From: Protoeuglena noctilucae
Lineage: Eukaryota
Direction of reading: 5' to 3'
NCBI GenBank assembly: GCA_958009085.1
Contig: OY253669.1
Span: 1,364,001-1,428,000 of the forward strand
DNA length: 64,000 nucleotides
Every line of letters starts with the position of its first letter. The first letter of the stretch is position 1. The notes under the pieces were generated by a model, which was given only the letters and a program-made list of their open reading frames with translations, made no database searches and was not told the origin of the DNA. This document shows positions 13,626 through 29,091 of this stretch, piece after piece. A program made the position numbers and the translations under genes.

Positions 13626-16567
13626 CTACTTGGTTGCGAGCTCCTTCTTGCGCTGCATCAACTGCTCCACCCGCGCGCGCTTGTGCCGCCTCGACTCGTT
13701 GATCCTGTGCAGGAACTTACGCTCCCGGCTGGTCATCAGCCCCTTCTTGGCGTCCTCAAGCGCCTCCGCGTCCTCCTCCGCCTCCTCCATCAGATCGGGC
13801 GTGCCGCCCTCGCTGGCCGCGTGCCCGCGCTTCTTGCCCGCCCCCGCCCCCGCCACTTGCAGCTCCTCGCGCAGCTCTGCCTGGAAGCGCTCCTCCTCCG
13901 CGACGGGCGCCGCCCGAACAGGGCCCGGCAGCGTCATGTCCTCGTCCTCCACGCCGACCTGCAGCAACCAGACCACGCAGCCCTCGCTCTCAGCCATTGA
14001 CAACAATTGACGATCAACTGCAGAATTCCAGCGCAGGTAGAGCTCTTCGCAACGCACGGTCCCGAGCACGTCAGTCGCTGCGAGAAGGCGTCGCGCGCTT
14101 CTCGCTCCGCACCTCGGCCGTGACGGGCGCCAGCCCCTGCTTGCGTGCGGCGGCCGCCTGCTGCTGGAGCTTCTTCACGACCTTGGCGAAGTCCGGAGTG
14201 TACCCCTCCTCCTCGTCGTTAACGAACGGGGACAGGTGCGGAGGTGGGACCTTCCCGGGGGCGTACATGGACGCCGGCGCCAGGATGCGGAAGTTGGCGC
14301 TGTCAAACACCCACTGGGGCTGCACGTACGTGCGCGAGAAGAACTGGTGGCCCTGCTGGGGGCGGTCGACGACCTGCGGGCGCGTCAGAGTGCCCGCGTC
14401 TAGGCTGGATGGGTCGCCACCCATGCCTTCCTTACAAGTGCAGAGGGCCGTCGCGGAAGCCAGGCGCAGTCATCGACACACAGTGTGAAGGTCCTAATCC
14501 AGCTATCGTCTGCGGTTGATCCCCAGGTCACGACATCTCCGGTATCTTTGCGACGCACCTCGTGCGTGATGCATTCGTCGTTCCGGCCGTGAGGCGACCC
14601 CTCGCCGTCCCAGCACGCGACGCCCCCAAACGACCGCACCACGAAGGCCACCACGTCCCGAGACACCTCGCGACTGATCCAAAAGACGAGGCCGCGGAAC
14701 AGCGAAGAGCACACTGCTGCGTCGTCCTCCCCCACGGCTGCCCCGCCCCCGACCCTAGCCACCGCCAGCTCCTTCCCCGCGGTCTCATCCCCGTCCTCCG
14801 CTTCCCGACTCCCCGCCTCAGCCCCACGGTTCGCGGGGTCCAATGCCCCTGCATCTGCATCTGCACCTCCCTTGTCCCCACCGCTCTCGCCCTCCCCGTC
14901 CTCATCGTCACTCGAGTCGTCCTCCTCATCGCCCGAATCGATCTCCACGGACCCATCCTCATCCTCGTCCTCGGCGCTGTCCCCTTCTCCCTCCCCATCC
15001 GAAGTTGCCCCATCCCCCGCATCACCCTCCTCCTCATCGCTGGACCCCGCCGCCACCCCGTCGCTCTCCTCCCCTTCTTCACCCCCCTCCCCGCCCTCCC
15101 CGCCCTCGCTCTCCCCGCTGTCCGACCCCTCCCCATCCCCCCGGGCCACCACCGCCGCGCCACCCCGCTTCAGCTCCCTCATCCTCCGCCTGCGCTCCTC
15201 CATCGCGCCCTCCCCCGCCCCCGCGTCCTCAGCCCCGTCAGTGCCCGCCGGGCCCTCTCCTGTGGCCCCCTGCTCGATGCGCTTTGCCGCCGCGCGCCTG
15301 GCGATGTCGTGCATCAACGCCTCCACCCCGCTCGCCGCCTCGTCCAGCCGGGGGTCAAGCACGGGAGGGTACTTGAGGCCCTGGTCGGCGTAGAGCTTGA
15401 AATGCACGAACTTGAGGAAGGTCTGGTAGAACTCCAAGAAGGTCAGCATGACGCGGTAGTCCACGTCCGACGGCAGCAGCTGCGCGAATGGTGGGGCGAG
15501 GGGCGGGGCGTGAGAGGGAGCGGCAGCGCTGGGTGCGTGCTGAGCATCGCGGCGAGCGATGAACGCAGTCGAATCGAGTTGCAATACATAGCATCAAGCA
15601 CGTATGAGGGCCGCCCCTCGCCTGGACCAACTGGTGCGGCACAATCCACGTGACGTCCTGGCCGAGGATCTGGGCCTGGAAGTAGACGCCCTTGACGGAA
15701 ATGAACGCCCGGCGCAGGGCGTGGGCGCGCACGCAGTAGGCCTGAAACTCGAGGGCCAGCTGCCGGGACACACGCACCGCCTTGTCGGGGATGCCGTGCT
15801 CGTCCGACGACGGCAGGGACGCGAAGAGGAAGACCATCGACAGCGCGTCGTCCATGTCCCTGAGCAGCGATGGGCCAGTGGTCGTTTGCTGCATGTTGTG
15901 CGACGCCGAGCTGCTGGCGAGAGCGCCCCGACTGCAGCGTGCAGGCGATGCGCCGCGGCCGGAGTGGGCGATAAACTACGGAATGTCACTCACCTGATTG
16001 CGTCGATGAAAGACGGATAGCGCTCGCGGACGAGGTGGTCCAGGCGGTACCCCGGCTTGCGGTTCATCAGCCGCTCCGCCAGCTCGTCGTTCTTCCGTCC
16101 CAAGGCCTTCTTGATCTTGCGCTCGTGCGCACGTATGTCGCGCATCGTCTGCGAGAGCATGCGGGCGACGGCCGTCGCGCGGCGCGGCCCCTGAGGTCTG
16201 CGCCCCGCCGCAAGCCGTCCCTGGCCTCGCCTGAAGGACGGGCTCGTGCAGCAGGAAGTTGATGTCCTTGATGTGATAGTAGCTCTTGTTCTGGCCGTGC
16301 GGCTTCTTCTTCGGCTCGCGCGGATGCACCCCTTTCAGGATGCACAGCCGCCGAAAGTCGCCCAGCTTGAGCTGGAGGCGCTTCATGGCCTGCGGACAGC
16401 GGCGGGTGTGTGCGAGTCTCGAGAAACAATTCACGCGAATCGCAAGCGCAGTCTCCGGCGACCTCGCGGCGCCACCGGGCGCGGCGGGCGGGCGGACGGC
16501 CGACCTGGTTCCGCGTGAGGTACTGGGCCACATTGCCCTTCTTTCCCTTCTCCGTCTTCTTCCCCAT
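13626..16567 (-). CDS. PES1: Pescadillo homolog (Nop7), BRCT-containing ribosome biogenesis factor
   Basis: [79 protein letters not shown], acidic low-complexity insert. Confidence 0.96.
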
Positions 16568-17100
16568 CTTGCTTCGATCTCAGACACCGGCGTGTGACCG
16601 AGCCGCGCTCGCCAACCGCCCTCGCCGGCGGCAAGGAAGCTGCTGACCTAACTTGCGCGCCTCCCCTCTACTCGAGCAAAGTTCGGTTGTTCGATGGGAG
16701 CGGCGTCATGTACTCGCAGAAGCGATATCCTGGCGCGACAAACTGCAGCCCGGCATCGTAAGATGGCGGAAAGTGCACATCGGGTCAGACTGGGGAGGGC
16801 AAACGCATGTGCACCTGGACTGGGCCGGCGCACCCTCCGTGATGGAGTTTGCCGCGCTATTCTAGCCGAGTAGCACACCGGTACCAGGACTTGCGCGCAA
16901 CAGGCTGCTAAACTAGTTAGATTGGTGGGGCGGTTGGTGCGGGGCTGGTGAGAGACGCGGAGCTATCTAAAGGCGTACAGAAGCTCGCTGCACGTTGCTT
17001 ATAGACGAATTTGCTTGTGTTCGATGTCACCGGCCGGATTCGGGCGTCCCGTGTGGGTCAGGATTGCGTCCTGTGGGTCCCGCCATTGCAGGGGGCCGAC

Positions 17101-20100
17101 ATGATCGCTGCGCGATCATCGGCCGCACGGCCACTCTCCACCCGCGCCAGCGGTCAGGGAGGACGTGTTCAGACGGTCCATGGTTCGCGGGAACGGGTCC
17201 GCGCCGTCGAGCATGCATCCTCACACTGTGCGAGGCCTTGGGCCCCTCGCCGCGTCCCGGCCTTCCGGACGGCGGCGGTGGCAGCCCCGGTTACGGAGGC
17301 AGCTGTCGACATTGCGGCTGAGAGGTGCCGGCCCGCAACGACGAGCAGGTCGCCGCTTCAGTGCGGGGTGACCAGTCGACCTGATGCGCCCCGCGGGAGT
17401 GGTTGGGGCCCACTCCCCGTGCGGGTCAGGGGCGCGAGGGCAAGTTTGCGGTCAAGAACTGTCGCTCGGAGCGGGGGAGGGATCACGCTGGACTTGGGAC
17501 AGGATATCCTCACTTTCTTGACTGTGACAGGTGCGCCGCCGCGAGCGTGCCGGGCCTCCTCGCCACGGTCGCCGCGCGTGGCCGTCCACGAATCTGTCGC
17601 GTTCCGCTGCGCCGCAGTTGCCATCATCCCGCTGTGCAAGCGCTACAAGGTGTCGCCCGTGCTTGGCTATCTCGTCGCCGGCTTCGTCCTGAAGCTTTTC
17701 GGCGCCCTCCACAACCTCGAGGATATTGGAAAATTGTCAGAGATTGGAGGTGTGGCATCCTGCCGCGGAGAGCCCGCGCATCGGCTTCACCGCGGCTGCC
17801 CTCGCGCGCCACTGCGCCGCGTGACGGCGAGCGCGCCGCGCCCCTCCGCTCCCCGCAGTTCTCTTCCTTCTGTTCGAGATGGGTCTCGAGCTCAACACGG
17901 AGCGTCTCACGGCCCTCGCGCGCTACGCCTTTGGCGTCGGCCTCCCCCAGGTCGTCCTCACGACGGCCCTCTTCACCTTCCTGTCCCTCCCGGGCGTCGG
18001 CATCGGCGGGAAGATCCTCGAGAGCGTGCTCCAGGGCCCGGTCCCGCTGGACGACATCCGCACCGTCGACGAGGCCGTGGTCATTGGCGCGGCCCTGTCG
18101 CTCTCGTCCTCCGCCTTTGTGCTGCAGCTGCTCAAGGAGCGAGGGGAGCTGCCCACCAGGCACGGCGCGGGCGCCCTGGGCGTCCTCCTCATGCAGGACA
18201 TCGTCGTTGTCCCGCTCCTGGTCATCCTTCCCCTCATCGAGGCGGCCGGGGGCCTCGAGTCGGACTTCGGCTCCTCCGGTCTCCTCCAAGGGGTGAGGGC
18301 CGCGCGCACGAGCTAATTGTTCTCTCGAAACCGTCACGGTTTACTGCCATGGCGTCCACCCACTCGCTCCCCACCCTCACATGAGTGCGTCAGGACCACA
18401 TGTGCACTGACACCCACCCGCGCATCTCCGCAGGCGGGCCCCGCCGCCCTGACGTCGCTGGGCGGACTGGGTCTCGTCGTGCTCGCGTCCCGCATCGTCT
18501 TACGCAAGGCTTTCGACGTGGTGGCCTGGACGCGCAGCTCGGAGGCGTTCGTGTCCCTGTGCCTCCTCACGGTGGCCGGGACGAGCTTCCTCACCGACAC
18601 GCTCGGCTTCTCCGACACCCTCGGGGCCTTCCTGGCCGGCGTGCTCCTCGCAGAGAGCAACTACCGAGCGCAGGTTGAGGCGGACATCAAGCCCTACAAG
18701 GGCATCCTCCTGGGGCTCTTCTTCCTGGTAAGGGACGGCCACGGCGTCGCGCGGGCACGGAGCGGTGTTGATCGCATTGGTCACTGCGGGCTTGTTCGTG
18801 TGCACGTGTGGTGCATAACGTGACTCATCATACACGACCCTCATCGGCGCTGCTCTGCTCACTCAATCCACCATCCACACCCACCTGGCCGCAGTCGACG
18901 GGCGCGGCTGTGGATGTCCAGACGTTCCTGGACAACTGGCCGGTCATCCTCACGCTCCTCGGCGGCCTCCTCGTCATCAAGGCCCTCGTCCTGACCCCCG
19001 TGGCCAAGGTCGGGGGCAACCTCTCGTGGGCCGACTCCGTGCGCCTGGGCATCCTCCTCTCCCAGGGCGGCGAGTTCGCCTTCGTCCTCCTGGCCCTCGC
19101 CAACTCCCTGGGCGTCCTCAACTCCCAGCTCAACAACGTGCTCCTGATCGTCGTCGTGCTGTCCATGGCACTCACGCCGACCCTCGCGGACGGCGCCAAG
19201 TGGGCGTCGGAGCTCGTGGGGGGCCTGGCGCAGGGCTCCGCGAAGCCCGCGCGGGACGGCGCGAGCCTGGACGTGCTGACGCAGCTGGAGGAGAAGGCGT
19301 TTGCCCAGGAGCCCGTGGTCATCTGCGGCGTGGGGCCCGTGGGCATGGTGGTGGCGTCCATGCTCACGTCGCCCCTCTCCGAGGCCGACATCTTCATGCA
19401 GACGGCGCCCGGGATGCGGGACGCGGGCCTCCCGCCCTTCGTGATGCTCGACTACAACGTGCGGCGCCTGCGGGCGGCCCAGGGCATGGGCCTGAAGACG
19501 GTCTACTACAAGGGGTACGCGGGGCGCGACATCCTCGAAGCCATCGGGGTCGAGCGCCCCACGGCGGTGGTGGTGTGCTACGGCAACCGCGCCCAGTCGG
19601 TGGAGACGGTCAAGTCCGTCAAGTCCTTCCACCCGGGGGTGCCCGTGCTGGCCAGCGCGCAGAACGCGGCACACGCGGCGGAGCTGAGGGAGGTGAGGGG
19701 CAGTTCGTGGGTGGTGTTGAGGGACGTGAGGGGCCCCCTCACTTTTATGGGTGGAGCTGAGAAGCGGGGGCGTGCTGCGAGCGGCTGGCCACTCAGTCCC
19801 ATGTGCATACGCCGTTGCCAACCCCGCTCCTGTGGCTCGCGCAGGCTGGCGCGGACGACGTGGTGGTCATGTCCATCGACACGGGCATCGAGCTGGGCAA
19901 CCGCTTGCTGCTGGGTATGGGCGTCCCGGGAGACGAGGTGAGGGGTGGTCCAGTGATGTGCAAGGGGCCCATTGTGTGAAAGCCTTTGAGAGGTCGTCAG
20001 GGCCAGTCGACTCGTGTGCCTCCGCACGGCGGTCATTGCATCTATACGCCTGATGCTTAATGCTCGCCACCGTGCACGCAGACCATGTACTTGGTGTCCG

Positions 20101-20399: not shown

Positions 20400-20763
20400 G
20401 GGCCGGTTGCGCCGGCGATGTCTCTGCGCATGGCGTGACTCGTGCTCCCCCGTTTGGGCTCGCAATAGTCGTGGTGTTTCCGTGACGTGTGGCTCGCCGC
20501 CACCCCCTGTATGCATCTAGTGGCAGAGTTGACGGACAGCACAGGTGACAAGTGTGGTGCGCACTCCTCCAACCCCAACCGTGGTTTCCGGTAATCACGT
20601 GGCCGTGTCCTACCATCATTGAAGTGTCGCGGAAAGGCAGCGCGAACCTAGGAGCCCTGCCACTGCTTCTGTCACGGCTCAACTGCACGCCGACACTCAA
20701 CGGGACTGCCACGAAGCGCGGGCAGCATGCTGCGATCCGCCATCCGCCTGGCCTCTGGCACCT

Positions 20764-22019
20764 TCACGCCTTGTCCGCCGCGCCCCACTGCGCCCCGAGG
20801 GCGTCGGCGATCTCCGGGCCGGTCAGGAATGGCACGTCGTTCCTCTCTGCCCACGCCCGGGCCGCATCGGGGCCCACGGGGCCAAAGTCGTCGCCCTCCG
20901 CGTGCAGCATGACGCACCCCACCGTCACTGGGACCACCCCTGCGGGCAAAACCACGACGGGCGGCTCAACACAGGCTCGGCTACGAGCAGCTGGCTGCGT
21001 GCGCACGTGGGTCGGCAGCACAGGCGCGCGGCTCACCGGCAGCCCTGGCCAGCGCCACCGCCAGCTCCGTGTGCCCGCGGCGGGCACGGAGGCCGCCCGG
21101 GTGCTCAATGCACCAGAAGATGTGGCCTGGGGAGTGGAACTCGGCGCCCAGGGCCCTGCCCGCCTGGGGCACGGACACCGTGCGGCTCGTCACATCCTCG
21201 CTCAGCTGCGGGGGGGTGTCAACAAATCGACGTTGACGTTCGCCGAGGGACGCGTGCGCCCATGCGCGCAGGCGCATGGCAGTGTGGCCTTTCACCTCGG
21301 CGAAGCGGCGGACGGTGAAGGAGCGCTCCACGTCCGGGGCACCGGTCTTGGTGCTGCGGTGGTCGAAGCTGAGCGACACGGAGCAGTCGCCCTGGCACAT
21401 GCTCGACGTCTCCTTGCCGAGGGCGGCCAGCGTCGGGTGCTCGTGGGCCGCGGCCCTCAGCGCCTGGCCCGCGAAGGGGATCCCGAAGGCCGTGGCGACG
21501 GCGTTTGAGACGGCCACGTAGAGCTCGCCACCGGCGTGCACGCGGAGGGCGCGGATCGACGCCGGCGTCGCGAGCTGGGCCGCGAAGTGAAGGTCCGTCT
21601 CACCCTCCCTCCCCGCGTCGTCGAGGATCGCCACGGGCCGGCCCGCGCGCAGAGCCTCGAGGGCGCGTTCCAGTTGGACCACACTGCCGCTGCGAGTGGA
21701 GCGGGGCGACTCTCTGGCGCAGCAGCACCTACTCAAAGGCGAACTACAGAGTCAGAGGCGAACCGCAAAAAGGCCAACGACACCTACTCCGCGGCGAACG
21801 ACGCCTAACGACCTGTGCAACCGTGGCCCCGTTCGCTCACCGTCGAGCGCCCTCCGTCCGCACGGGGGTGGTGGCGGCACGAGCAATGACGGTCTTTGAC
21901 CGGCACTGCATGTGCGCCGAATGCACAGCGGCGCGCAGGGCGGGGGAGATTTTCGGGGCCTTGCATTTCGCCTGGGCTTGCGAGGGGGCCGAGCCCATCG
22001 CCGCGATTGAAAGGGCCAT
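20764..22019 (-). CDS. ribB: 3,4-dihydroxy-2-butanone-4-phosphate synthase-like (stand-alone, archaeal-type RibB) with putative plastid transit peptide; 3 introns
   Basis: ALEALRAGRPVAILDDAGREGETD, GIPF, DHRSTKTG..ER, EFHSPGH, RRGHTELAVALA, C-terminal AERNDVPFLTGPEI; intron phases join in frame. Confidence 0.85.
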
Positions 22020-22349
22020 CGTGATCGTTACTCGTGCGCGTCTCCCGGGTGCCGGCAGGCGCAGGCACGTCGGAGGGAGGTCGGGAGAGCTCGGGTCCCC
22101 TGTTGCAGCAAATCTAGCACTCCAGAGGTACGGCGAGATCTTGTCGGATGACAACCGATAGAGGTGAGTTGTTTGGGGCCAGCTCGCGGCCTTTCCACGA
22201 AGACTTCGCCACTCACTGGCAGGTCAAAAAGCAAAAGTGCCTTTCATATTGGTGGCCGAGCAGTCGGCCTCACCCGCTTCCTCGCAGCAATGATCCTCTC
22301 TGAAGTCAACCAAGGGTCGAGCAGCAGCGCAGGGGTGGCAGAGACACGC

Positions 22350-23857
22350 CTACTCCTCGTCCGTCTCCGAGTGAACATGGTCGGGCGCGAAACTCGTGAT
22401 GCGCCGCATCGCGCTCCCGCTCCCCCCACCTGCCGCCGCCGGCACGTCGCACGGCCCGGCAGCGGCGCGGGGACGCGCTGGCACCGTCGTGGTGTGCGAC
22501 GCCCTGCCCCCCATCTCGTCGCGCACCGTGATCCGCGGGAGGCGCGGGCGCGCCCCCGTGCGCGGCGCGGCTGCCGGCGGACCCGCGCCCGACCCCCCGC
22601 GGAACAGAGACGCAATGCGCCCCAGCAACCCCCTCCTCCCGACCGCGGAGGCCCGCGCCTGGCCCTCCGGTGCGGAGCCAGCGCCCCGCGTGCTCGGCCG
22701 TGCCTGGGCCGAGACCGAGCCGGGCCACCGCGTCGCGACCGGCTGCACCAGCGGCGCGTTGCACATGGGGCAGGACGACGGCCGAGGATACTCGGTGCTG
22801 GTCAGGGCCCAGCGGTCGATGCAAGGCAGGTGGAACTTGTGGCCGCAAGGGAGGACCCTCAGCTCGACCCCGGAGGCGTACTCGTCGAAGCAGATGCCGC
22901 ACTGCTCGGCCGTCCCGCCGCCATGGTTGGCGATGAGGTCGACGAGCCCCTCCTTCTGCGGCGGGGACGGGGGCAAGGGCGCCGGATCGCAGGCAGGGCG
23001 CAGGGGTGCAGCAAGCAGCGAGCGGCGGGGGCAGTGCCCCGCAGAAGGTGGGCTGGCGCTGTGGCTAAAGGTCTCACCTCGAGCACGCCCTCGGAGGACA
23101 GGCCGAGGACGCTGAGGTGCTCCCGGAGGTGCGAGATGGACTCTGCCTTGAGCTCGTCCCGCGTGCGCCACGTCTCGACCGGCATGCTGCGCACCGCCTT
23201 AATCACCTCCGCGATGCGGTGCGCCCGCTGTGCGCGCGTCTGGCCCCTCGCCGCGCGCTGCGTCTCCGCCTCCGTCGGCAGCGGCACCCTGCACCGCACG
23301 CGCGATGAGGGCTGGCATTGACTGGGGTCGCTGGGACCAGCTGGGGCCGCTGGGTCCCCCTAAGGCGTGGCGGGCGACCGCACCTGAAGTCCAGGAGTCG
23401 GACGAGGGCGCCGAGCCCCCCGTGAGCGCGGGCGAGGATGATGAAACGGAAGAGGAGGAATATGGTGACGATGGTCGGGATGAGGGCACTGAGCATCATC
23501 ACCACGGACGTGGGCGGGTATTCCACGAAGTACCCCGAGGACCACGACTCGACTCGGTCGTCGTGGACGTGCACATGAATGCGACGGGCCTGGAAAGGAC
23601 CCTGCGGGCGGGCTACGTCAGGCCGGTTCGTGGCTAGGGCGTAGAACGGGGCGCCGTGCCTGATCGAGGGCCGGCAAGCTCACCTCCCCGGCCACAGTAT
23701 GGAAGAGATACGCGATACCCATTTGAAATATCCCGGTGCTCAGGAACCAGGGGACGAGGAACATGGCTAGGATCCCCCAAGCCGTTCCGTCCTGAGGGTC
23801 GTGCTGCACCACGAACCCGCCCGGGCCGATGGGGCCGATGAACCCATAGAAGATCAT
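22350..23857 (-). CDS. Transmembrane RING-H2 E3 ubiquitin ligase-like protein (5' end uncertain)
   Basis: CGICFDEY..LRVLPCGHKFHLPCIDRW..CPMC; N-terminal hydrophobic helices; SISHLREHL..GVLEKEGLVDLI helical segment before the RING. Confidence 0.8.
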
Positions 23858-25029
23858 CGTGCCGGGGCGGGGACGGGCGGGTCGCGCCTGCGTCGGTGTC
23901 GCGCGGTAGGGACACCCGTGTGGACGGTTCCCCCTCCAGAAGCACCCCCGTCACGTGGCGGCCGGCGACGTGCTCACCCGCGCCACCTCTGTCGCCCTCC
24001 TCCTCTGCAATCAACCACTGGTGGAACGACGGGGCGCTGCTTCTCGCTCTGCAGGCCCGCGGCCTGTGCGGTTGCTGCCAACGATGCCAACGATGCCCTG
24101 GAGAACGCTCTTCGGTTTTCGCGCCAAAAATTCGCGACCATCCATCGCCAGTTCGCGTTTCACCTCCCTCTTTTTTTCTGACTGGCACCTTTTTTGCCAG
24201 TGCCGCACGCCAGCGGGGCCCAAGCGCGTTTTCAGCTCGTCCACCACCATGAAATCTGCGGCGCGACGCTCCGCGACCTCCCGTTTCTCGGCAAGGCGGT
24301 TTTGCACGCTCGCCGCTCGTGTGACGGGTTGGGGGCGCGAGCGCATGCCGCCTCGAGGCGGAGGCGCTTAAGGGATCTCGTCTGACCCGCGCGGCGGGCG
24401 GAACGGGAGGGCGCCCGGGTGAGCTGCTCGCCGCGCCGATCTCTGGCCCGTCGCGCCAGGGCGATGGCCCGATCCTCATCGCCGCGCCTTTTTGGTGGGA
24501 ATGCGCGCCGGCTTCGGGGATCGACGTGCGAGCTGCCGGCCTCTGCGTGACGCTCACCAGTGGTTCCAACCTGGTCCCCCGGAAGAGGGCGCGAGCGGGG
24601 CTCGGGGGAACGCCGCGAGACCCGTTCGCGACCGTGAACGCGTTCGCGCCCGCGAGCGCGCCGCGCACTGTCCCAATTTCCTGCCAACCGGCCGTCACGC
24701 TGTGCGCCCCTGCTCGCGTCCGCCCCGCGCCCGGCGCGAGCCGTCGGCCCCGAGTGTCGCGGCTCCATTCGATCGGTGCTGTCGAGCCCGAGGTGCCGGT
24801 ACCAGAGACGCAGTCGACAGACCGGGCGGGACTCTCCCCCGCCGTCCCCGCCGGTGTGACACTTTTTTCAAACGGCGCCCGCGCCGGCTCGTCGCCCGCC
24901 GCCCTCGCGTCTCCATCGACTCGTTCCGCGTTGCCGGCGCGATCCCCCGCCCCTCCCCTCCTTCCCGCGGGATCCGCTGCTCCCACGCCGCCCGCAGTGC
25001 CGGAGGCCGCGCTGTCGCCCATCGCCCTC

Positions 25030-28000
25030 ATGTCGGGCCACGAGGGGGCCGCCGACGAGGGCGCCGCGGCGTCCGGGTCCGCTCCCGCCCCCGGCGCGCC
25101 CGCGGAGCTGGACACGGTGCACCGCGTGAAGGTCTACAAGCTGAACCAGGACGGGCACTGGGACGACAAGGGTACGGGCCACGTGGCGATGGAGCGGCTG
25201 GACGGGAGCTGCCCGGGCCTAGTGGTCATCGCGGACGACATGCAGACTTTGCTGATCCACCGCGTGTCGCGGGAAGACATCTACCAGCGCCAGCACGCGT
25301 CCATCATGACCTGGTCGGACCCCTCCATGGGCACCGACATCGCGCTGTCCTTCCAGCAGCCGACGGGGTGCAACGCCATCTGGGCACGCATCGAGGAGGC
25401 CCGCCAGGAACTCACGCGGCGCCCCGCATCCCCGGAGGGCCGCCAGGACGACGTCATGGAGGACGTGCCGTCGCCGCGCCAGTCGGAGCTGCCGCCCATC
25501 GAGCCCGGGACGCTCCCGGACGTCGCCAAGATGCTCGCGGAGGCCTCGGTCTTCCAGCGCGAGCGCATCGCGTCCCAGGTCGTCAAGTGAGCGGCCGGGG
25601 CTCCTGTTGGTGGGCCAGGGCTGGTGGGCGATGGGCGAGGCTCGTCGGGCATGGGGCTGGCCACCTATGGCTCCTTCACCTCAGCACATCGAGAGCCGGT
25701 CCCTTCAAAATTCATGACCGCGCGCGGGCTGTTGCATGCGCCCTGCGACGCTGTCCGACCGTCACGCCATCATCCCTCCCTGGCTGCCGCAGAGAAAACG
25801 CGGTGCGGAAGCTCCTGGACGTTTTCGGGCAGATGGAGGACTTGGAGGACGCCGACTCGCTGCAGGCGTGCTACTGGTGCGGACTGCAACGCAGCAACAC
25901 CCGCTGCCGGCCCGAAGACCTGGCCGCCCCACCGCCACCCCTCTCCGTACATCCCCGCAGGGCCGTGCGCGGTCTCATCATGCTGAACGACTCGCGCGTG
26001 TTCGAGTCCCTCTTCTCGGACCAGAACATCCTCGACGTGATTGGCGCCCTTGAGTATGACCCGGAGCTCCCCACGCGTCAAAACCACCGGGAGTTCCTGC
26101 GCACCCGCGTGGCGTTTAAGGAGGTCGTGCCCATCAAGGACCCCTCCATCACGGCCAAGATTCACTTGTCCTACCGGTGAGCGAAGCTGTGTGCCGGAGT
26201 GTCGGGGTAGGGTAAGGGTCATGGGCCAAGCGTGGTGGGGCGTGGCAAGTCGCAGGATGGGCGCAGGGGTACACGATGCATGATGCCCGCCGATGCGAGC
26301 CTACCCGTGACGTGGCGATCCGCGAGGTTTCGCAGGATTGGGTACATCAAGGATGTCATTCTGGCACGTACCCTGGACGACGCTGTCTTCGCATCTCTCT
26401 CCTCCCTCGTCCTGCTCAACAACATCGAGGTCGTGTCTGCCCTCATGGCGGACGACGCGTTCGTGGCTGAGCTGTTCGACCGGCTGCGGGCCCTGCAGCC
26501 CTCCGAGGGTGGCTGGAGGGACCTGGTGGCGTTCCTGCAGGTGACCGTGAAGGGTGGCAGCAACAGAGCACGGGCCGGGTGGCAGGCGCACCCCCGCTTG
26601 CGCAGTGTGCGGTGTGGTGTGGGTTAGCGACGGCCGCCCCGCCCCGCCCGGCTCGCAGGAGCTCTGTGCGCTGTCCAAGCACCTCCAGGTGCCCGCGCGG
26701 GAGGGCGTCATGTCCAAGCTGCAAGGCATGGGGTTGTTCGAGGTGCTGTCGTCCGTCATGCAGCACGGGGAGCCAGAGCTGAAGCTCCGTGCCACCGACA
26801 TCCTCATGTCTGTTGTCGACCAAGACGCTGCGCCTCTGAGGGCCTTCATAGTACAGGTGTGAGGCCCCGAGGACGCGCTGGGTGCTCGCGCAGCCTGCGT
26901 GGTGGGCTGTGACGCGGGCCGTGGCCATTCTAGCGGCATGCACATGAGCGGCCTGCCCACTACTTCGCCCTTGCGTCCCGCACTGATTACGTGTCAAAAC
27001 ACCCAAGTCTCTCCTTCTCTGTCTCCCAGTCTGACGCGGGTAAGGACCTCCTGGCGGCGCTGGTGGCCGTGCTGCAGCAGGAGGACCCGGCAGAGGTGGG
27101 GCTCCAGGAACAGACGTCGGAGCTCCTTCGGTCCATCCTGGACGTGGGGGCGCTGCCGCCCCTGACTGCGACGGACGAGGAGCGCACCAACTCCGAGGTG
27201 GTCGCCCAGGTGGGTGGACTTCGCGCATGCTGCTGGCAGTGGTGCACGGGAGCGGGGAGGCATGAGACATGACAAGGAGTCGCGCACCCCCCCGCCAGCG
27301 ACACGTCACTCGCCGTGCCCCCCCCCCGCTGCCCCCGCAGGCCTTCCTGCACCTGTTCTACGAGCGCCACGCCCGCACTCTGGCGGAGATGCTGGAGCAG
27401 GACCCCAAGGGACAGTGGGCCGTGCCCCCCGGGACCGTGTGCCTCATCCTGGAGCTCTTCTGCTTCTGCCTGCAGCACCACGGGTGAGCAGCCAGCAGCC
27501 AACAGCGAGCAGCGGTGCGCCACCGTTACGCTATCGCTGCCACGCCGGATGTGCTTGGCATGACTGACCGCGAGTAAGAGTGGCGCGCGTGTGACACAGT
27601 ATGTAAACACTTGACCAGCATGTCCCTCTCCGCAGTATGAGCTCCAAGTACTTTGCGATGAGCACATCCCTGGTCAAGAAGGCCCTGCGTCTGGTGCACG
27701 CCCGGCAGCAGTGGGTCGCGGCCGCGGCCGTGCGCTTCGTCCGCGTCCTCGTCGGCATCCAGGACCCCTTCTTCCCCAAGCACCTCGTCTCCGCGGACTT
27801 CCTCTCGCCCCTCGCGGACGTCCTCCTTTCCCTCGGCGATCGCTACAACCTCCTCTCCTCCTCCATCCTCGACGTCTTCGAGTTTCTGGCACGGGACAGC
27901 CCCGGGCACGAGGTGCTAGACTATGTCGCCAGCACTTGCCTGCCGCGGCTGGAGAAGGAGGTCACCTACTGCGGCACCTTCCGGGCGCTGCGGGCGGCCG

Positions 28001-29091
28001 TGAACGGGCAGCCGGTGGGGGGCGCGGGGGGGCTGGGGTGCGCGGGGTTGGGGGCGGGGGCGGGGATGGAGGGTTCGGAGACGCGGGCTGCCCCGGCGGC
28101 ACCCGCCACGGGGAGCATGCGTGGGGAGGGGCGGGGCGTGGTGCGGGAGGCCGTGCTGCGGGAGGCGCGGGGTCTCGACCGGGACGAGGAGGCGTGGTTC
28201 AGTTCGGAGGACGAGCCGGACGAGGCGCCGGGTGCGGACGCGCGTGCAGGGTCGCTGGGGAGCGGGCGCGGGGGGGGTGGGGGCCTGGCGCTGGGGTGGC
28301 GAGAGGTGGGGCCTCGCTCCACAGAAGAGGGGCGGGGGTTGGGGGGCGGCTGGCGGGTTGCGGGGCCGAGCGGGCGTGGGACCGGGGATGGCGAGGGCGG
28401 GGGCGGGCGGGGCTCTTGGGCAGGTGGGGTGGCGACGGGGCACCCCGTGGAGTCGGGAGGTGGGGATGCCGGCGCGGTCACTGGGGACCCGTTGCAGTCC
28501 CCCGTCCCTGCGGTGGCATTCCCGCTGGTGAGTTACGATGACGACGATGAGGAGGAAGGGGTGGAGAAGGGGAGGGAGGGGCAGAAGGACGCGGGAGCGG
28601 GTGCGGCGTCGGGGGCTGGGGCGGGGACGAGCGGGGGCGAGGGCGAGGCCGACGGGGAGGGGCGGCTGTGGGGGGTGCGGCGCGTGGCGGCGATGGGGTC
28701 TGGCGGGCCGGGTCTGTGGCACCGGGACAGCCCGAGGGTGGATGGCGGGGCAGGGTCGGATGCGGGGAGCGGGGGACCACGGAAGCGACCGTGGGATGCA
28801 GGGGAAGGTGAGACGCGAGGCATGGGTAGAGTGCGTGCTGTGTCGGGGGGCACAGTGAGGTGTAATGTAATGCACGTGGTGTGGTAGGAAGCGGGAAGAC
28901 TTGCCGCACCCCCAGGTCCCTTTGGGGAAGAGGAGCGCGACGCCTGGGGTGGCAGGCAGGCCCAGGAAGGGCAGGGGGCGTTCATTGGGCCGATGCCCAG
29001 GGGTTCGGGCGGTGGGGCAGAGGTGTCTGTGGGGTCACGGGGGGATCTGGAGGAGAAGCGCGCACGGGTGGGGAGCGGGCACGTGGGCTGA
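25030..29091 (+). CDS. PP4R3: Protein phosphatase 4 regulatory subunit 3 (SMEK/PSY2L)
   Basis: EVH1 HRVKVYKLNQDGHWDDKGTGHV, DIALSFQ, GALEYDP, HREFL, FKEVVPI, KIHLSYRIGYIKDVILAR, YNLLSSSILDVFEF; Gly-rich tail; last exon (28916-29091) inferred. Confidence 0.92.

Follow-up and report, generated by a model that had tools for sequence, protein, structure and literature searches.

A stand-alone archaeal-type DHBP synthase homologue with a remodelled active site in green algae and seedless plants

How plants make riboflavin is regarded as settled: DHBP (3,4-dihydroxy-2-butanone 4-phosphate) is supplied by RIBA, a bacterial-type DHBP synthase (DHBPS) fused to GTP cyclohydrolase II. The DHBPS reaction, as set out by Kenjic et al., proceeds through dehydration at C1, rearrangement of the skeleton, hydration at C4 and deformylation. 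Single RIBA proteins are reported from Physcomitrella and Chlamydomonas, and two from Selaginella (PMC3509567). In addition, the tables of Yue et al. 2012 (PMC3493653) list a Physcomitrella 'ribB' (GI 168028296) with Euryarchaeotes as donor, 'Land plants' as range, no Arabidopsis homologue and riboflavin biosynthesis as function; the legend of their Fig. S13 mentions another moss copy, RIBA-like, longer by 332 aa and with a predicted chloroplast location. Here we describe a relative of the moss 'ribB' in the marine green alga Protoeuglena noctilucae. The gene has four exons and lies on the minus strand (coding span 22019..20764) of a 64,000-nucleotide stretch of contig OY253669.1 (positions 1,364,001 to 1,428,000), which we refer to as the window. 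Its product belongs to a Viridiplantae-wide family that keeps the metal and phosphate ligands of DHBPS but has lost a glutamate present in all 229 other sequences compared.

A DHBPS homologue of the archaeal type

The four coding exons, joined by their coordinates, give 918 nt and a translation of 305 aa plus stop that matches a database protein (P0002; sources jgi, lgn) letter for letter, and the numbering of that protein is used here. The read-through open reading frame (ORF) matched the PF00926 (DHBP_synthase) profile at 117 bits, against a gathering cut-off of 26.4; the same profile scan returned no match to the GTP cyclohydrolase II domain (PF00925), and the protein ends after the DHBPS domain. 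When solved structures were searched with HMMER, residues 66-292 aligned with Methanocaldococcus jannaschii RibB (1pvw) over the whole domain at E = 2.1e-33, which excludes a chance match; the best bacterial and fungal chains gave E values of 1.9e-18 to 1e-11. An AlphaFold (AF2) model built from a 36-sequence alignment had a predicted local distance difference test score (pLDDT) of 85.7, with residues 1-55 disordered and a dip in confidence at 151-160 (loop 2). The top Foldseek match of this predicted fold was again 1pvw_A (template modelling (TM) score 0.93, rmsd 2.0 A, 34% identity), with bacterial RibB at TM 0.80-0.86. A protein atlas returned archaeal DHBPS clusters only (0.89-0.91). The archaeal-type insert between GIPF and loop 2 is present. 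A reading made from the sequence alone had already proposed a stand-alone DHBPS fold lacking GTP cyclohydrolase II and resembling the Methanocaldococcus enzyme in its motifs. This was borne out, and REGETD, AGG, GIPF, HRSTKTG, EFHSPGH, GHTELAVALA and FLTGPEI all occur in P0002. The protein is a stand-alone archaeal-type DHBP-synthase homologue and a member of PF00926, not a plant-type RIBA.

The protein fell short of the NCBIfam equivalog TIGR00506 for functional DHBP synthase (EC 4.1.99.12; cut-off 177.45). P0002 scored 145.1 bits, and all three family proteins scored fell below the cut-off, at 133-145; of two archaeal relatives, P0036 passed (186.4) and P0024 failed narrowly (170.5).

The 65 residues that precede the domain contain 15 Ala, 7 Ser, 6 Arg and 4 Lys, with no Asp and a single Glu. 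The Ala/Ser/Arg-rich character noted in the sequence-only reading is therefore real, and the extension resembles an organelle presequence; its composition cannot separate the plastid, which that reading proposed as destination, from the mitochondrion. A long presequence is found in 5 of the 19 family members compared below; the moss proteins have short acidic N-termini.

Active-site residues kept, lost and gained

For residue comparison and phylogeny we assembled 265 sequences of at least 170 aa, from database matches and from ORFs of 79 archaeal loci out of 80 (none came from L021), and extracted 254 domain sequences. Six were set aside from the residue counts (three partial family members, two truncated sequences and one bacterial-type sequence with Gln at the Glu position discussed below), leaving 19 family members and 229 others. 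The latter were sorted by the insert between GIPF and loop 2 into 167 archaeal-type and 62 bacterial-type sequences, and M. jannaschii numbering was taken from the HMMER alignment to 1pvw.

At 24 positions conserved in at least 85% of the 229 others, the family keeps 19 residues, partly keeps two and has lost three. The kept positions include D83, R87, E88, E90, D92, T175, G176, P217-G218-H219, R233 and G235-H236-T237-E238. In VcRibB and ZtDHBPS, Glu and His serve as metal ligands, and two Arg, a Thr, a His and an Asp as ligands of the phosphate or substrate (PMC9305975, PMC12268802). In the family E88, H236, R87, R233, T237, D92 and H219 are conserved in 19 of 19 members, save one Ser for Thr. 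The acidic loop and both catalytic histidines (H219 and H236), which the sequence-only reading had judged intact, are indeed so by alignment. Judged by this conservation, the residues expected to bind two Mg ions and a sugar phosphate are under strict constraint across the family.

The three lost positions are a Phe (now Val164), an Asp (Glu181) and a Glu (Val257). Val257 stands opposite Glu185 of M. jannaschii and the bacterial Glu (E. coli E174) in the alignment to solved structures, as the sequence-only reading had it, and the replacement is absolute: Val in 19/19 family members and Glu in 229/229 others, the excluded bacterial-type sequence having Gln. This Glu is reported to be the acid/base catalyst (Fischer 2002, Liao 2002, Steinbacher 2003). 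The earlier list of changed catalytic positions was right about the Glu and incomplete otherwise, as it overlooked the Phe, the loop-2 Tyr, the loop-4 Asp and the new Glu115. The loop-2 Tyr (M. jannaschii Y95), which is Tyr in 154 of the 167 archaeal-type sequences, is Cys158 in 18 of 19 family members (the column being located by counting backwards from Ser99). Where loop 4 normally has Asp (E. coli D113), 18 of 19 members have Glu, a residue also found there in 19/229 others. Residue 115 is Glu throughout the family and Leu in 174 of the 229 others. Together with Glu115, the family-specific gains comprise Tyr117, a loop reading Met-Cys-Gln-Gly-x-Cys, Ala177 and His215. The same signature recurred in 13 of 91 additional sequences, all 13 of them family members, among them those of Physcomitrium, Selaginella, Calypogeia and Sphagnum. 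Through the entire depth of the green lineage, the residues of the reshaped pocket are as constrained as the ligands.

Two further candidate features were dropped. A CxxxC motif that, with Cys256, might have formed a metal or redox site is not a universal trait of the family, since P0070 and P0212-P0214 have Val158, Thr256 and Phe or Tyr at 170. Glu225 was rejected as a carboxylate compensating for the lost Glu, because it also occurs in marine-group-II-like archaeal RibBs that retain Glu185.

The sequence-only reading had counted a second replacement as catalytic, at the position of E. coli Cys67 (M. jannaschii Cys55). Tyr117 does align with this Cys; its interpretation as a lost catalytic residue did not survive. 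Phe occupies the position in 55 of the 229 other DHBPS sequences, including those of 33 of the 79 archaeal loci. Five of five examined archaeal genomes with the Phe form, one of them a cultured Haloplanus, contain a single PF00926 match together with lumazine synthase (PF00885), and in four of the five the two genes lie about 0.5-1.2 kb apart on the same strand. An aromatic residue here is compatible with a working RibB, because the Phe form is the sole RibB in archaeal riboflavin clusters. The change of Cys to Tyr is inherited from the archaeal branch and is not a loss of function. We also observed that at loci L002, L004, L010 and L055 (genomes G005, G003, G004 and G002; marine-group-II-like, Thermoplasmatota) ribB stands upstream of one or two genes of the 6,7-dimethyl-8-ribityllumazine (DMRL) synthase family, at a distance of 0.5-1.2 kb, in a conserved small riboflavin cluster.

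Range, origin and genomic setting

A search with the window ORF gave 65 matches at E <= 1e-5 among 8000 scored candidates and was followed by a further search with a family profile; a search with the moss protein gave 166 matches at E <= 1e-20 among 5844 candidates, of which the best 120 were examined. Algal members come from Pedinophyceae sp. YPF-701, Scenedesmus sp. PABB004, Pseudoscourfieldia marina, Prasinocladus malaysianus, Prasinococcus and two Closterium species, and land-plant members from Ceratodon, Physcomitrium, Sphagnum, Calypogeia and Selaginella. Further records carry the database codes Chrzof1, Tetstr1, Mesen1 and SM000222S, which we take to be Chromochloris, Tetraselmis, Mesotaenium and Spirogloea. 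There was no seed-plant member among the best 120 of the 166 moss matches. The family is monophyletic and extends across chlorophytes, streptophyte algae, bryophytes and one lycophyte (Selaginella). The idea that the gene is peculiar to this alga can thus be discarded. Given the chlorophyte members, acquisition must have preceded the chlorophyte-streptophyte split, or else several transfers took place.

Not all records fit this range neatly. A protein with the full family signature (P0233) is filed, oddly, under a rotifer assembly (Rotaria sp.) and could reflect algal food, contamination or secondary transfer. A divergent subgroup (P0070, P0212, P0213 and P0214, with P0019 intermediate) keeps Val257, Glu115, Tyr117 and Cys162 and differs in having Val for Cys158, Thr for Cys256, Phe or Tyr for His170, and a C-terminal insert of about 14 residues. 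One member derives from a protist transcriptome set, and through this subgroup the family may reach beyond Viridiplantae.

In a FastTree analysis of 249 rows (the partial sequences P0016, P0034, P0067, P0119 and P0120 being dropped), the 19 family rows formed one clade (100). This lay inside a 45-row set (98) shared with marine metagenome-assembled genomes labelled 'Methanobacteriota/Euryarchaeota' and a Poseidoniia row, with marine-group-II-like archaeal RibB as sister (local support 90). IQ-TREE, run under LG+C20+F+G4 with posterior mean site frequencies (PMSF) on 66 chosen rows, six of them bacterial-type, again recovered the family (100/100) and separated archaeal-type sequences plus the family from bacterial-type ones, plant RIBA included, at 100/100. 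The earlier suggestion of an old prokaryotic, possibly archaeal, acquisition therefore holds as far as the type is concerned: the protein groups with archaeal-type DHBPS and away from bacterial-type RIBA, which supports a prokaryotic derivation of the family, from the archaeal type.

The donor lineage is less settled. IQ-TREE supports for placing the family among archaea were 19/0, 48/97 and 43/68, and an approximately unbiased (AU) test did not reject a tree in which all 44 archaeal-type rows are united to the exclusion of the family (lnL difference 5.13, p = 0.218). In the same IQ-TREE analysis the median end branch measured 0.36 and the family stem 1.50. A genome-contig scan returned 500 relatives, the best 80 all archaeal; since its pattern (GHTEL...) favours the archaeal type, it provides no independent test of archaeal affinity. 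The best non-plant match to the moss protein, among the best 120 of 166, was a Candidatus Poseidoniaceae sequence (46% identity). Glu225 is shared by the family, all 10 members of the marine-group-II-like clade (including loci L001-L006) and six scattered others, the position being Ala, Ser or Gly elsewhere; as a possible shared derived character, it might indicate the donor. The top match and Glu225 together hint at a marine-group-II-like archaeon, but with IQ-TREE supports of 19-48 and the AU result we dropped the proposal of one specific archaeal donor.

A literature search for archaeal-type DHBPS in algae or plants found only Yue et al. 2012, from which the euryarchaeal origin and the co-existence with RIBA are already published for moss. 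A search combining DHBPS, Glu174 and Cys67 had no match. The active-site changes are not mentioned in Table 1, Table S1 or the Fig. S13 legend of Yue et al., although the Fig. S13 alignment itself could show the residues. The family and its euryarchaeal origin are therefore known; these searches found nothing in print on the green-algal spread, on expression of a presequence-bearing form in marine plankton or on the remodelling of the active site throughout the family.

The gene model (Table 1) was taken from RNA. Contigs from three of three marine metatranscriptome runs of one study (X1, X2 and X4) match the window without a differing letter and join at three junctions that skip precisely the three introns, all with GT..AG ends on the minus strand, whereas a DNA-like run (X6) covers the same stretch unspliced. 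The four-exon structure claimed from sequence was therefore correct. An alternative exon 2 acceptor at 21728 was ruled out by the RNA contigs. The 181 nt upstream of the start codon (22020-22200) contain no ATG. GC content is 0.70 over the gene, like its flanks (0.65-0.72 throughout), and 0.89 at third codon positions (GC3). In this GC-rich marine green alga the gene is nuclear, contains introns and is expressed.

Table 1. Features of the RibB-like gene and its neighbours in the window
Feature	Position	Strand	Description
Transcribed region	20608..22200	minus	mRNA contigs X1, X2, X4; 5' side reaching 22153-22200 or beyond
Poly(A) addition site	near 20608	minus	contig loose end TTTTTTTT (run of T)
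Exon 1, coding part (ATG 22019)	21841..22019	minus	Ala/Ser/Arg-rich, acid-poor N-terminal extension
Intron 1	21690..21840	minus	151 nt, GTGAGC..TCGCAG
Exon 2	21296..21689	minus	first DHBPS half: acidic loop REGETD, GGELY strand, GIPF insert, MCQGDCS loop 2, TKTGAPDVER loop 4
Codons GAG CTC TAC (Glu115-Leu116-Tyr117)	21518..21526	minus	Tyr at M. jannaschii Cys55 position; Glu115 at Leu53 position
Codons Met157-Cys158-Gln159-Gly160-Asp161-Cys162	21383..21400	minus	loop 2; Cys158 in place of M. jannaschii Y95
Codon GAG (Glu181)	21326..21328	minus	position of the loop-4 Asp (D118 in M. jannaschii, D113 in E. coli)
Intron 2	21206..21295	minus	90 nt, GTGAAA..CCGCAG
Exon 3	21037..21205	minus	EFHSPGH and RRGHTELAVALA (His219, Arg233, His236, Thr237)
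Intron 3	20940..21036	minus	97 nt, GTGAGC..CCGCAG
Exon 4, coding part and stop (TGA 20766-20764)	20764..20939	minus	VGCVML strand, C-terminal FLTGPEI
Codon GTC (Val257)	20911..20913	minus	position of otherwise invariant Glu, putative catalyst (M. jannaschii E185 / E. coli E174)
Pescadillo (N-terminus match, split ORFs)	14400-16647	minus	ordinary intron-bearing eukaryotic housekeeping gene
KEA-like K+ efflux antiporter	18772-19941	plus	Na_H_Exchanger + TrkA_N; neighbour gene
RING-H2 zinc-finger gene	22350-23198	minus	directly upstream of RibB-like gene, same strand
PP4R3/EVH1 match (split ORFs)	24325-28887	plus	ordinary intron-bearing eukaryotic housekeeping gene

Spacing around the gene is very compact. 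The KEA-like gene, which has a Gly/Arg/Ala-rich tail ending at about 20399, is convergent with it and ends about 210 nt from its poly(A) site. On the other side, the stop codon of the RING-H2 gene lies about 150 nt from the farthest mRNA 5' end, and the X1 contig extends past 22200; overlapping untranslated regions or read-through between these two genes are possible.

Function and comparison with known systems

The reading that we favour, at about even chances, is that the family represents a neofunctionalised metal-dependent enzyme, which would still bind ribulose 5-phosphate (Ru5P) or a close pentulose or sugar phosphate and carry out a changed or shortened DHBPS reaction. The retained Mg and sugar-phosphate apparatus would account for binding, and the replaced pocket residues (V257, C158, V164, E181 and the gained E115) for a reaction that departs from the four-step DHBPS sequence; housekeeping DHBP for riboflavin would come from the bacterial-type fused RIBA of the same plants and not from this protein. 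A role other than ordinary riboflavin synthesis seems probable because an otherwise invariant, presumably catalytic residue is lost. The long stem branch of the family and its TIGR00506 scores under the cut-off point the same way, and P. patens also has the fused RIBA-like copy. Moreover, the family appears dispensable where riboflavin synthesis is not, as judged by the lack of a seed-plant member among the moss matches examined and of an Arabidopsis homologue in the tables of Yue et al. (PMC3493653). There is also a documented analogy for diverting the DHBPS scaffold by single changes in loop 4: a dxs mutant is rescued by the E. coli RibB variants G108S and D113G, which raise DXP (1-deoxy-D-xylulose 5-phosphate) about 20-fold in vivo (PMC3424233), and G108S (E. 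coli G108 being M. jannaschii G113) is used as an Ru5P-to-DXP 'nDXP' enzyme (PMC8227265). The D113 position is among those changed in the family. On our reading the riboflavin-synthesis assignment of the moss-type 'ribB' is probably mistaken.

Several points weigh against a new activity. The direct evidence that the lost Glu matters consists of its invariance. Glu115 lies two residues before Tyr117 on the Cys55 strand, hence on the same strand face, and might substitute for the lost Glu, in which case the enzyme would be an ordinary DHBPS. The TIGR00506 cut-off is tuned to prokaryotes, and P0024, a close archaeal relative, also falls below it. Finally, the co-existence with RIBA is taken from moss and Selaginella, species other than this alga.

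These points lead to the main rival, namely that the protein is a true DHBPS, a second isozyme differently located or regulated, in which the acid/base Glu has moved from the strand of residue 257 to position 115 on the adjacent strand of the active site and Cys and Tyr have changed places (C55 to Tyr, Y95 to Cys). We consider this possible but doubtful. It would explain why all the metal, phosphate and His ligands are retained in 19/19 members, why the gain of E115 coincides exactly with the loss of E257, and why the Cys and Tyr replacements are reciprocal; an aromatic residue at the Cys55 position fits a working RibB, and both the databases and Yue et al. (PMC3493653) label the protein ribB. 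However, the Glu is invariant in archaeal and bacterial types alike, and with 229 of 229 other sequences retaining it, its relocation is evidently not tolerated elsewhere. In addition, the Asp of loop 4 and a conserved Phe have been replaced, the score is under the equivalog cut-off, such an enzyme would be redundant with RIBA in moss (PMC3493653), and no seed-plant member was found among the best 120 of the 166 moss matches.

Alternatively, the protein might be a non-catalytic pseudoenzyme that has kept sugar-phosphate and Mg binding and acts as a sensor, regulator or scaffold. The loss of the universally conserved Glu would fit, and there is a precedent in plant RIBA3, which keeps an inactive DHBPS domain (PMC3509567). 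Yet the whole ligand set does not vary at any depth of Viridiplantae, and neither do the two catalytic His, D92 or the acidic loop, which makes a pure binding protein less likely. The new residues E115, C162, A177, H215 and V257 are invariant too, a pattern suggestive of selection for a reshaped active site and not for binding alone, and we regard the pseudoenzyme as unlikely.

A more specific form of altered catalysis is a natural counterpart of 'nDXP', fed by the Calvin cycle, that would dehydrate Ru5P without excising C4 and release a five-carbon 1-deoxy product, either a 2,3-diketone phosphate or, once reduced, DXP itself. We rate this a long shot. If it were true, green algae and seedless plants would have a DXS-independent entry into the methylerythritol phosphate (MEP) pathway, or else a new signalling or damage metabolite. 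The last explanation, that the gene is an artefact (contamination from archaea, a chimeric assembly or a pseudogene in decay), is refuted even though the nearest prokaryotic relatives are marine archaea living beside phytoplankton, because three spliceosomal introns are removed in poly(A) mRNA, the frame is intact, GC3 and flank-like GC content fit, the genes on either side are eukaryotic and orthologues exist in many plant and algal genomes.

Strong constraint has preserved this second DHBPS homologue from prasinophyte-grade algae through to lycophytes, although it lacks a residue retained in every other sampled DHBPS. It amounts to a natural experiment in re-tuning the DHBPS scaffold, which bears on the engineered Ru5P-to-DXP shortcut, and it can be tested directly, as the Physcomitrium orthologue has the same active-site signature.

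E. coli RibB G108S and D113G resemble the family in having a DHBPS scaffold altered in loop 4, with the D113 position in common. They differ in being laboratory suppressor mutants with an intact catalytic Glu. Moreover, the family keeps the Gly (G176), its neighbours Ala177 and Pro178 differ, and the change of Asp to Glu181 is conservative. Plant and cyanobacterial RIBA share the Pfam family and the ligand residues with the algal protein, but are bacterial-type, fused to GTP cyclohydrolase II and in possession of the Glu, whereas the algal protein has neither the fusion nor the Glu.

M. jannaschii RibB (1PVW, 1PVY, 1SNN) agrees with the algal protein in full-length alignment, fold, GIPF insert, acidic loop, PGH and GHTE motifs and the Arg and Thr phosphate ligands. 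Against it, the algal protein carries the replacements E185V, Y95C, C55Y, L53E, F101V, D118E and R144H, and its gene is eukaryotic, with introns and an N-terminal extension. The RibBs of Poseidoniaceae and other marine-group-II-like archaea provide the best non-plant matches (43-47% identity to the moss protein among the best 120 of 166) and share Glu225. In contrast to the family, they keep E185, Y95, F101 and D118 and lie in riboflavin gene clusters; they are its sister in FastTree, without support in IQ-TREE. The Physcomitrella 'ribB' is a stand-alone member of the same family, and the Physcomitrium protein P0220 has an identical residue signature. The algal protein differs in its long presequence, which the moss protein lacks. 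Whereas the range given in the tables of Yue et al. is 'Land plants' (PMC3493653), the family is found in chlorophyte and prasinophyte-grade algae as well, so that the archaeal transfer described in 2012 is older than the land plants.

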